A stretch of DNA of 8,332 nt from a virus (taxonomy: Duplodnaviria; Heunggongvirae; Uroviricota; Caudoviricetes). The notes beneath the pieces were generated by a model. The model did not search any database and was not told the origin of the DNA. It saw nothing but the letters and a program-made list of their open reading frames with translations. How positions within the stretch are numbered: the first letter of the stretch is position 1; every line of letters starts with the position of its first letter. The stretch lies in IMG/VR virus record IMGVR_UViG_2728369183_000008; one strand, 5' to 3'. Both the position numbers and the translations under genes were made by a program. This document shows, piece after piece, positions 2,044 to 3,578 of the stretch.

Positions 2044-2197
2044 TCATCGCCCCACTCATCACAATATGCTTCGACCGGAGTTTTTCCTGCTTCATAATCA
2101 TCACGCCATGCTTCAGCATCAGCAGCACTGCCACCACGTAACTCTGCATAGTCCATTAACAGTTCATGCCATGCTTCAAAACTGACGTTGTATTTAG
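2040..2197 (-). pseudogene. 3' fragment of a prophage gene truncated by IS5 (ends ...AEAWRDDYEAGKTPVEAYCDEWGDE)
   Basis: The reading frame is open from the IS5 left boundary (2197) to the stop at 2042..2040. It does not continue on the other side of IS5: the sequence right of the element shows an in-frame TAA and no start codon in that frame. Confidence 0.5.
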
Positions 2198-3392
2198 GGA
2201 AGGTGCGAATAAGCGGGGAAATTCTTCTCGGCTGACTCAGTCATTTCATTTCTTCATGTTTGAGCCGATTTTTTCTCCCGTAAATGCCTTGAATCAGCCT
2301 ATTTAGACCGTTTCTTCGCCATTTAAGGCGTTATCCCCAGTTTTTAGTGAGATCTCTCCCACTGACGTATCATTTGGTCCACCCGAAACAGGTTGGCCAG
2401 GGTGAATAACATCGCCAGTTGGTTATCGTTTTTCAGCAGCCCCTTGTATCTGGCTTTCACGAAGCCGAACTGCCGCTTGATGATGCGAAACGGGTGCTCT
2501 ACCTTGGCACGGATGCTGGCTTTCATGTATTCGATGTTGATGGCCGTTTTGTTCTTGCGCGGATGCTGCTTCAAGGTTTTTACCTTGCCGGGACGCTCGG
2601 CGATCAGCCAGTCCACATCCACCTCGGCCAGCTCCTCGCGCTGTGGCGCTCCTTGGTAGCCGGCATCGGCTGAGACAAATTGCTCCTCTCCATGAAGCAG
2701 ATTACCCAGCTGATTGAGGTCATGCTCGTTGGCCGCGGTGGTGACTAGGCTGTGGGTCAGGCCACTCTTGGCATCGACACCAATGTGGGCCTTCATGCCA
2801 AAGTGCCACTGATTGCCTTTCTTGGTCTGATGCATCTCCGGATCGCGTTGCTGCTCTTTGTTCTTGGTAGAGCTGGGTGCCTCAATGATGGTGGCATCCA
2901 CCAAAGTGCCTTGGGTCATCATGACGCCTGCTTCGGCCAGCCAGCGATTGATGGTCTTGAACAATTGACGGGCCAGTTGATGCTGCTCGAGCAGGTGGCG
3001 GAAATTCATGATGGTGGTGCGATCCGGCAGGGCGCTATCCAGGGATAATCGGGCAAACAGGCGCATGGAGGCGATTTCGTACAGGGCATCTTCCATGGCA
3101 CCGTCGCTCAGGTTGTACCAATGCTGCATGCAGTGAATACGCAGCATGGTCTCCAGCGGATAGGGCCGTCGGCCATTGCCCGCCTTGGGATAAAACGGCT
3201 CGATGACAGCGGTCATATTCTGCCATGGCAGAATCTGCTCCATGCGGGAGAGGAAAATCTCTTTTCGGGTCTGACGGCGCTTAGTGCTGAATTCACTATC
3301 GGCGAAGGTGAGTTGATGGCTCATGATGTCCCTCTGGGATGCGCTCCGGATGAATATGATGATCTCATATCAGGAACTTGTTCGCACCTTCC
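2198..3392 (-). mobile_element. IS5 insertion sequence, full length (1195 bp)
   Basis: Left terminus GGAAGGTGCGAATAAG at 2198..2213; right terminus ...CTTGTTCGCACCTTCC ending at 3392 (imperfect 16-bp inverted repeats as in IS5). Encodes the 326-aa InsH transposase. Confidence 0.95.
2344..3324 (-). CDS. insH: IS5 transposase InsH (DDE family)
   Basis: 326-aa ORF starting [35 protein letters not shown]..., recognised as IS5 InsH; sits inside the IS5 inverted repeats. Confidence 0.95.
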
Positions 3393-3578
3393 TCAGGTAA
3401 GGGACGAACAAAAAATCCTCGGTGAATGCCTCCCGTTAAAAAAAGTATCGCTGAACCTGAATAACGAAATACCGGCTGGATAACCCGCCAGCCATATTAA
3501 CGCCATACCAACGGATTAAAAATGCCAGCAATGGCAGGGATTCGTTCACCCTGAAATCTGTAATGAGGTTAAAACACA

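Follow-up and report, generated by a model that had tools for sequence, protein, structure and literature searches.

The prophage segment analysed here raises the question of how an insertion sequence (IS) of the IS5 family came to stand between two tetranucleotides that do not match. The window, i.e. the whole stretch of 8,332 nucleotides under study, contains the element at positions 2198..3392, bordered on the left by TTAG (2194..2197; CTAA on the other strand) and on the right by TCAG (3393..3396; CTGA on the other strand), flanks that are read directly from the sequence and had been given in the same form in a preliminary description of this DNA. TTAG is a canonical target which fits the IS5 target motif YTAR, derived from 220 duplications (PMC5009759); TCAG is a non-YTAR sequence. 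Random tetramers nearly always differ, and the mismatch is meaningful only since IS5-type elements usually duplicate 4 bp. This premise, on which the preliminary description had relied, is upheld by a control, a sister ISKpn26 copy in the related prophage L008 which has TTAG on both sides. A small and taxonomically mixed survey covered 93 unique complete copies of the IS5/ISKpn26 type, drawn from contigs of genomes, metagenomes and viruses and not all independent of one another; identical 4-bp flanks were found at 49 copies, conforming to YTAR in 44 of these 49, and non-identical flanks at the other 44. Non-matching flanks are, hence, common in IS5-type copies, and where a duplication is missing, the usual reason is an adjacent deletion or recombination between two copies of the IS (PMC11708052).

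The window represents the early-left end of a lambda-like prophage of about 50 kb with a Qin-like early region, which is integrated at tRNA-Ser(CGA) (window 7352..7441) beside mtfA. To the left of the element lie an intact prophage gene of unassigned function (1528..2043, minus strand), encoding a 171-aa protein (WP_001289993.1) which is annotated under the same accession in L001-L004 (the intact relative and three sister genomes, see below) and gave no match in a Pfam search, and the 3' remnant of a 58-aa ORF (2040..2197, minus strand; in the intact relative, WP_000753058.1) that has lost its first 19 nt, start codon included. On the right the element is followed by the 3' remnant of a DUF1482/ydfD-like gene (3393..3483, plus strand) whose first 98 nt are deleted. 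Both the truncation of the left gene and the failure of its reading frame to resume on the right had been recognized beforehand; the frame cannot resume because what follows on the right is part of another gene, encoded on the opposite strand. Rightward of the junction, the first gene to be preserved intact encodes a YdfE/RecE-like exonuclease (3579..5990, plus strand) and holds a run of 95 N (5852..5946). As 135 bp lie between the same anchors in L001 and in the NCBI contig L141, this run is a scaffold gap or a mask which does not keep the true length, and because of it the exonuclease ORF of the window comprises 803 aa as opposed to 824 aa in L141, on whose product the Pfam domains YdfE_N, YdfE_C and Rv2179c-like were found. 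In the integrase region (6275..7299) a run of five A residues (6654..6658) is present in the window and in L141 where L001-L004 have six; the frame of the window is broken into ORFs of 153 aa and 209 aa, and in the relatives with six A residues the integrase is already flagged as frameshifted by PGAP.

The element itself had been named IS5. It has a length of 1195 bp and is bounded by terminal inverted repeats, GGAAGGTGCGAATAAG (2198..2213) and CTTGTTCGCACCTTCC (3377..3392), which match at 15 of 16 positions, in agreement with the size of about 1.2 kb and the 16-bp terminal inverted repeats GGAAGGTGCGAAYAAG that characterize the IS5 group. It is oriented on the minus strand, with IRR forming the left end (2198..2213) and IRL the right end (3377..3392) in the window. 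As in the IS5 group, it carries a single DDE transposase gene, which is intact (2344..3324, minus strand; 326 aa; WP_000019440.1), is annotated by PGAP as 'IS5-like element ISKpn26 family', and yields the Pfam domains PF05598 and PF01609 (DDE_Tnp_1) in the identical gene of L141. An alignment with IS5A of E. coli K-12 MG1655 over the full 1195 bp shows 94.6% identity (63 mismatches, 2 gaps), and the element is thus short of near-identity to K-12 IS5; by ISfinder convention, copies of the same IS share at least 95% nucleotide identity. The assignment to the IS5 family therefore stands, while by its nucleotide sequence the element is to be classed as ISKpn26-type and not as IS5 sensu stricto. 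The copies in L002-L004, L141 and L142 are 100% identical to that of the window.

The origin of the two flanks becomes apparent from the prophage of strain LC-1302-2020 (L001), an undeleted relative. Window 1098..2197 equals L001 1..1100 at 100% identity and window 3393..5851 equals L001 9001..11459 at 99.96%, and the IS stands in place of L001 1101..9000, i.e. 7,900 bp that normally lie between the two flanks. The left junction falls at L001 1100/1101, within a CDS (L001 943..1119, minus strand) that corresponds to window 2040..2216 and represents the 58-aa ORF, and the right one within the DUF1482/ydfD-like CDS (L001 8903..9091, corresponding to window 3295..3483); the undeleted sequence reads GTATTTAG|TTGAACC at the left site and CCTGCAT|TCAGGTAAGG at the right site. 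The two flanks are parts of a single prophage at a single site, as 36 kb of late genes located leftward of the early region (Q, lysis, head, tail, up to zinT) are collinear between the strain of L001 and the IS-bearing strain MS 196-1. The arrangement is that expected for an adjacent deletion, in which the flanks are apart in an undeleted relative and the IS is found in between instead, and it supports the earlier suggestion of a deletion junction rather than a simple insertion. The lost interval encodes a DUF7167 protein, two small hypothetical proteins, an Ea22-like protein and DUF4406, DUF977 and DUF1627 proteins, the replication functions (protein P and a DnaT-like, O-type protein), and, in addition, YdaT, a Cro-like protein, an HTH repressor (cI/DicA-like), a DUF1391 protein, Rha and DicB. 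Contiguous flanks free of the IS, which would read ...GTATTTAGGTAAGGGAC... and would have spoken against a deletion, were found in none of 5,426 complete E. coli genomes; at least 80% of the window is covered in only three of these 5,426 genomes, all of which have the IS.

The two flanks differ at one base only, which might suggest a simple insertion whose duplication was changed from TTAG to TCAG by a point mutation, and the N run at 5852..5946 is a sign of a gapped or masked assembly, in which a junction could have arisen as an artefact of repeat assembly or sequencing. We attach next to no probability to either explanation. TCAG is present at L001 9001..9004 in the intact relative as well, on the far side of the deletion, 7.9 kb away from TTAG. 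Since it is native at this distant site, it is not a mutated TTAG, and a mutated duplication is ruled out; going by this comparison, the resemblance between the two tetramers is to be considered a coincidence. Repeat-collapse misassembly is likewise ruled out by independent assemblies and by three finished genomes which share the left junction and have closely similar deletions. An exact look-up of a 55-aa chimeric ORF across the right junction (3316..3483, plus strand) returned NCBI contigs of four independent types, which stem from about 12 samples, and the contigs L141 and L142 carry both junctions together with the identical IS. Because independent NCBI contigs repeat both joints with the same non-identical flanks, the TTAG|IS|TCAG junctions are not an assembly or sequencing artefact. 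The chimeric ORF starts within the IS, antisense to the start of the transposase gene, continues in frame into the ydfD-like gene, whose last 30 codons form its 3' part, and is reported by gene callers in four NCBI assemblies; its product is a predicted one. An exact look-up of a 120-aa chimeric ORF found nothing on record, and a 38-aa ORF (window 2040..2156) was rejected as a marker for the left junction as the same product is called in intact prophages. The left junction was found in the isolates GCA_025788395.2, GCA_038399315.1, GCA_023863725.1, GCA_023857705.1, MS 196-1, SW070919 and 23CRST038. Scanning viral contigs for right junctions of the types present in the window, in L003 and in L004 gave no match, and every deleted form that was found comes from an assembly of an isolate.

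Two contigs from one metagenome (IMG metagenome 3300029862) bear on the order of events. L386 is 100% identical to window 1..2299, stops within the IRR end of the element, and is 100% identical to L004 across 5.3 kb. In L385, 605 bp of the IRL end (100%) lead into TTAG and TTGAACC..., a junction that is represented by the k-mer GTTCGCACCTTCC+TTAGTTGAACC; from there onward the contig equals L001 1097..4699 at 98.7% and, past an immunity region that has diverged, reaches an exonuclease gene at a distance of about 7.8 kb. Taken together, the contigs are read as a simple insertion at the TTAG site, with the duplication present and the early region undeleted. A resident IS prior to the deletion is thus documented by two metagenomic contigs of a mosaic relative rather than of the direct ancestor, as L385 departs from L001 past the nin region, the identity between its exonuclease gene and that of the window being only 90.8%. 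We take L385 to be a mosaic relative of the ancestor, an independent insertion at the same site being less likely. A search of the 5,426 complete genomes did not turn up the direct ancestor, in which the IS would stand between two copies of TTAG in an L001-identical prophage. This absence would also fit a one-step event in which the IS arrived as the 7.9-kb deletion formed, e.g. by entering a double-strand break, and no duplication was ever made; such a process has been put forward as a hypothesis for an observed case of an IS5-family element in E. coli C (PMC11708052). For the present locus we consider a one-step event improbable, as in L385 and L386 this IS occupies exactly the site in question, between two copies of TTAG, and the early region is kept, the left flank being 100% identical to that of the lineage, and as three further nested junctions indicate that deletions proceed from an already resident copy.

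These nested junctions were found in the finished genomes of SW070919 (L002), MS 196-1 (L003) and 23CRST038 (L004), in which the left junction and the IS are identical to those of the window. While the right joint of the window lies at L001 9001 (TCAG), without extra loss, that of SW070919 lies at L001 9044 (TTAA), with an additional loss of 43 bp relative to the window, that of MS 196-1 at L001 9177 (TTAA; 176 bp), 10 bp before the ATG of the exonuclease gene, and that of 23CRST038 at L001 9416 (CTGA; 415 bp), inside this gene. At all four joints the end of the element, ...CACCTTCC|, is kept to the base and there is no flanking duplication. Only five YTAR sites occur in L001 8901..9600, and two of the four joints land exactly on them, for which the chance is about 3e-4 by our own arithmetic; target selection by the transposase therefore fits better than random breakage. 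The remaining two joints, TCAG in the window and CTGA in 23CRST038, represent the same tetramer on opposite strands and are one base off YTAR, and CTGA was found once in the survey on both sides of an IS5-type copy (L049), that is, as a true duplication. The state of the window is likely to be ancestral to the three forms with larger losses.

Outside the junction the window equals MS 196-1 save for one homopolymer base, and SW070919 and 23CRST038 differ by one short divergent patch each, with 7 differences in the integrase region (window 6269..6633) and 39 differences in the exonuclease gene (window 5007..5477), respectively. These dense patches look like gene conversion or recombination rather than clock-like divergence. 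At the right junction of SW070919 (L002 9393.., corresponding to window 3436..3446) six A residues follow TT, compared to seven in the window and in L001, which is either a homopolymer error of the assembly or a real 1-bp change at the joint. Selection for expression of the exonuclease from the IS end found no support as a reason for the nested deletions: the joint in MS 196-1 removes the ribosome-binding site and that in 23CRST038 the 5' end of the gene.

The account that we favour, and hold to be probably correct, is a normal insertion followed by a transposase-mediated adjacent deletion. The ISKpn26-type element would first have inserted at TTAG near the 5' end of the small nin-region ORF, thereby duplicating TTAG. 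The transposase would then have joined the resident IRL end (window 3392) to a TCAG target 7.9 kb off in the ydfD-like gene by intramolecular transposition, upon which the DNA between, including the 5' part of ydfD, would have been lost. By this route, the IS would have kept one TTAG at its left, so that TTAG at 2194..2197 is presumed to be the surviving copy of the original target duplication, and would have met the unrelated TCAG at its right; in the sister lineages the same IS end would have moved further by 43, 176 and 415 bp. The 4-bp duplication at a YTAR site, which is present in the precursor contigs and at the sister copy in L008, would be missing from the window copy because the adjacent deletion replaced the right side. 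An adjacent deletion is pointed to by the exact IS end, the target-like joints, the movement of one end from a fixed junction, and the apparent single-copy state of the element in the chromosomes of two strains, MS 196-1 and 23CRST038. Against it stands that two of the four new joints (TCAG and CTGA) miss the strong YTAR preference of the element.

The preliminary description had named adjacent deletion and recombination between two IS5 copies side by side, and support for this pair of mechanisms is unequally distributed. According to the second, another ISKpn26 copy in the same orientation would have inserted at TCAG (L001 9001..9004), and a RecA-dependent exchange between the 1.2-kb copies would have dropped 7.9 kb along with one copy, leaving a hybrid IS. 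By sequence this is the same product as that of an adjacent deletion, and it is exactly the product observed; such recombination is described as often underlying the lack of a duplication (PMC11708052), a one-copy precursor at the TTAG site exists in L385/L386, and SW070919 has the element in four places, so that further copies are at hand in this strain. However, a second copy at the right site was found in no genome or contig, the right junction of the window type occurring only together with the deletion. The IRR end of such a copy would be marked by the k-mer CATCCTGCATTCAG+GGAAGGTGCGAATAAG, and a two-copy ancestor, with IRL abutting TCAGGTAAGG and the interval undeleted, was found in none of the records searched, an absence from databases that is not proof. 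Recombination would in addition require four separate insertions in the same orientation within 415 bp, each followed by an exchange, in a lineage in which two genomes with a single copy now offer no partner to recombine with, and two of the four joints are non-YTAR compared to about 90% YTAR among true insertions. We regard recombination between two copies as a possible but rather unlikely origin of the junction.

The survey adds to this point, as non-YTAR sequences make up 28 of 88 flanks at copies without duplication versus 5 of 49 true duplications (Fisher p = 0.006; the survey being small and mixed). This excess leans against ordinary insertion and subsequent IS-IS recombination, since that route would not predict it. 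Eight of the 28 non-YTAR flanks at duplication-less copies (within L011-L384) have the form CTGN/NCAG (CCAG, ACAG, TCAG etc.), which may constitute a secondary target class. For the adjacent deletion favoured above, we infer that the transposase was the catalyst and that no short-lived second copy took part by recombination. Going further, it might be speculated that in natural E. coli lineages a single resident ISKpn26 serves as a 'nibbling' engine of deletion that works from one end, with IRL being transferred repeatedly to nearby relaxed targets (CTGA/TCAG as well as YTAR) and the early region being progressively eroded, and that the non-YTAR excess reflects a target capture mode specific to deletion; we offer this extension tentatively and would rather doubt it at present.

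The left junction is not the only IS5-type junction in this part of the prophage. Four independent ones lie within about 350 bp (L001 1100..1453) and in the same orientation (loci including L006, L007 and L008). In addition to that of the present lineage (L001 1100; IRL-side deletion), they comprise a junction in TUM13770 (L001 1357; flanks TTAA/CTAG), with a 432-bp deletion on the IRL side, one in CP53 (L001 1381; flanks CTAA/CTAG), with an IRL-side deletion of about 4 kb into ydaT, and a simple insertion with a TTAG duplication in 23AR0998 (L001 1450..1453). The segment thus looks like a hot spot for insertion with directional loss of the early region. In another lambdoid prophage (L137), the 38/58-aa ORF is fused directly to a truncated ydaT with no IS between, and in L140 it lies about 330 bp from dicB, again with no IS between; these arrangements indicate that the early region is also lost without a resident IS. 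Among prophages at the Qin site, ISKpn26 links a truncated sulfatase-like gene to DNA just upstream of the exonuclease gene in TUM14664 (L009), a joining which implies a very large deletion, and an IS5 copy lies within dicB in 2017C-4173W12 (L010). From their arrangement, both can be regarded as independent cases of IS5-type elements remodelling the same operon.

The deletion takes out the repressor/cro switch, the replication genes and dicB, which encodes a lethal division inhibitor, together. As the repressor/cro and replication genes are lost and the integrase gene is disrupted, the prophage would be locked in place, with the late genes, hokD, rem and the exonuclease gene retained. Loss of the DicA-like repressor probably needs the loss of dicB as well for the cell to remain viable, and this joint requirement may explain why the right ends are located just beyond dicB. 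The locus thus provides a natural example of an IS turning an almost complete prophage into a locked remnant, for which public data cover all stages, from the empty site through the simple insertion and the 7.9-kb deletion to three extensions, and it might be useful for teaching and for benchmarking the annotation of IS-bounded deletions. A further lesson is that flanks differing at a single base need not be the remains of a duplication that has decayed. The type of event is already well known, and the general picture of IS5-family elements is unchanged.

Several known systems invite comparison. With regard to a canonical IS5/ISKpn26 insertion, the element agrees in its 1195 bp, its terminal repeats, its 326-aa transposase and the left TTAG that fits YTAR, but the copy in the window is without the matching duplication. 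The adjacent deletions of IS903, another member of the IS5 family, occur by intramolecular replicative transposition. They are commonly made by this element, and for the IS5 family, transposition by replicative as well as conservative pathways has been reported (PMC11708052). As in adjacent deletions by IS903 and other IS5-family members, the IS is kept with an exact end, one flank represents the old duplication and the other a new target, and the DNA at one end is lost; unlike these, the deletion was here deduced from natural isolates instead of being observed, and half of the new joints are non-YTAR (TCAG, CTGA). We found no experimental study of adjacent deletion by an ISKpn26-type element. 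In the long-term evolution experiment with E. coli (LTEE), adjacent deletions by IS150 grow stepwise over time (PMC11708052), with one junction fixed, the other end variable and no target duplication, which closely recalls the nested series of 0, 43, 176 and 415 bp; IS150, however, belongs to the IS3 family and was watched in real time in one clone, whereas the order proposed here is deduced among clinical and environmental isolates. Finally, the intact relative shares with the cryptic K-12 prophage Qin (and with Rac) a DicA-like repressor, a cro-like gene, ydaT, ydfA/DUF1391, dicB, ydfD/DUF1482, a ydfE-type exonuclease, hokD and rem, and related prophages at the Qin site likewise have independent deletions bounded by IS5-type elements. 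In contrast to Qin and Rac, the prophage resides at tRNA-Ser/mtfA rather than at ydfJ/rspB, and, as its full late gene set is kept, it represents a much younger remnant.
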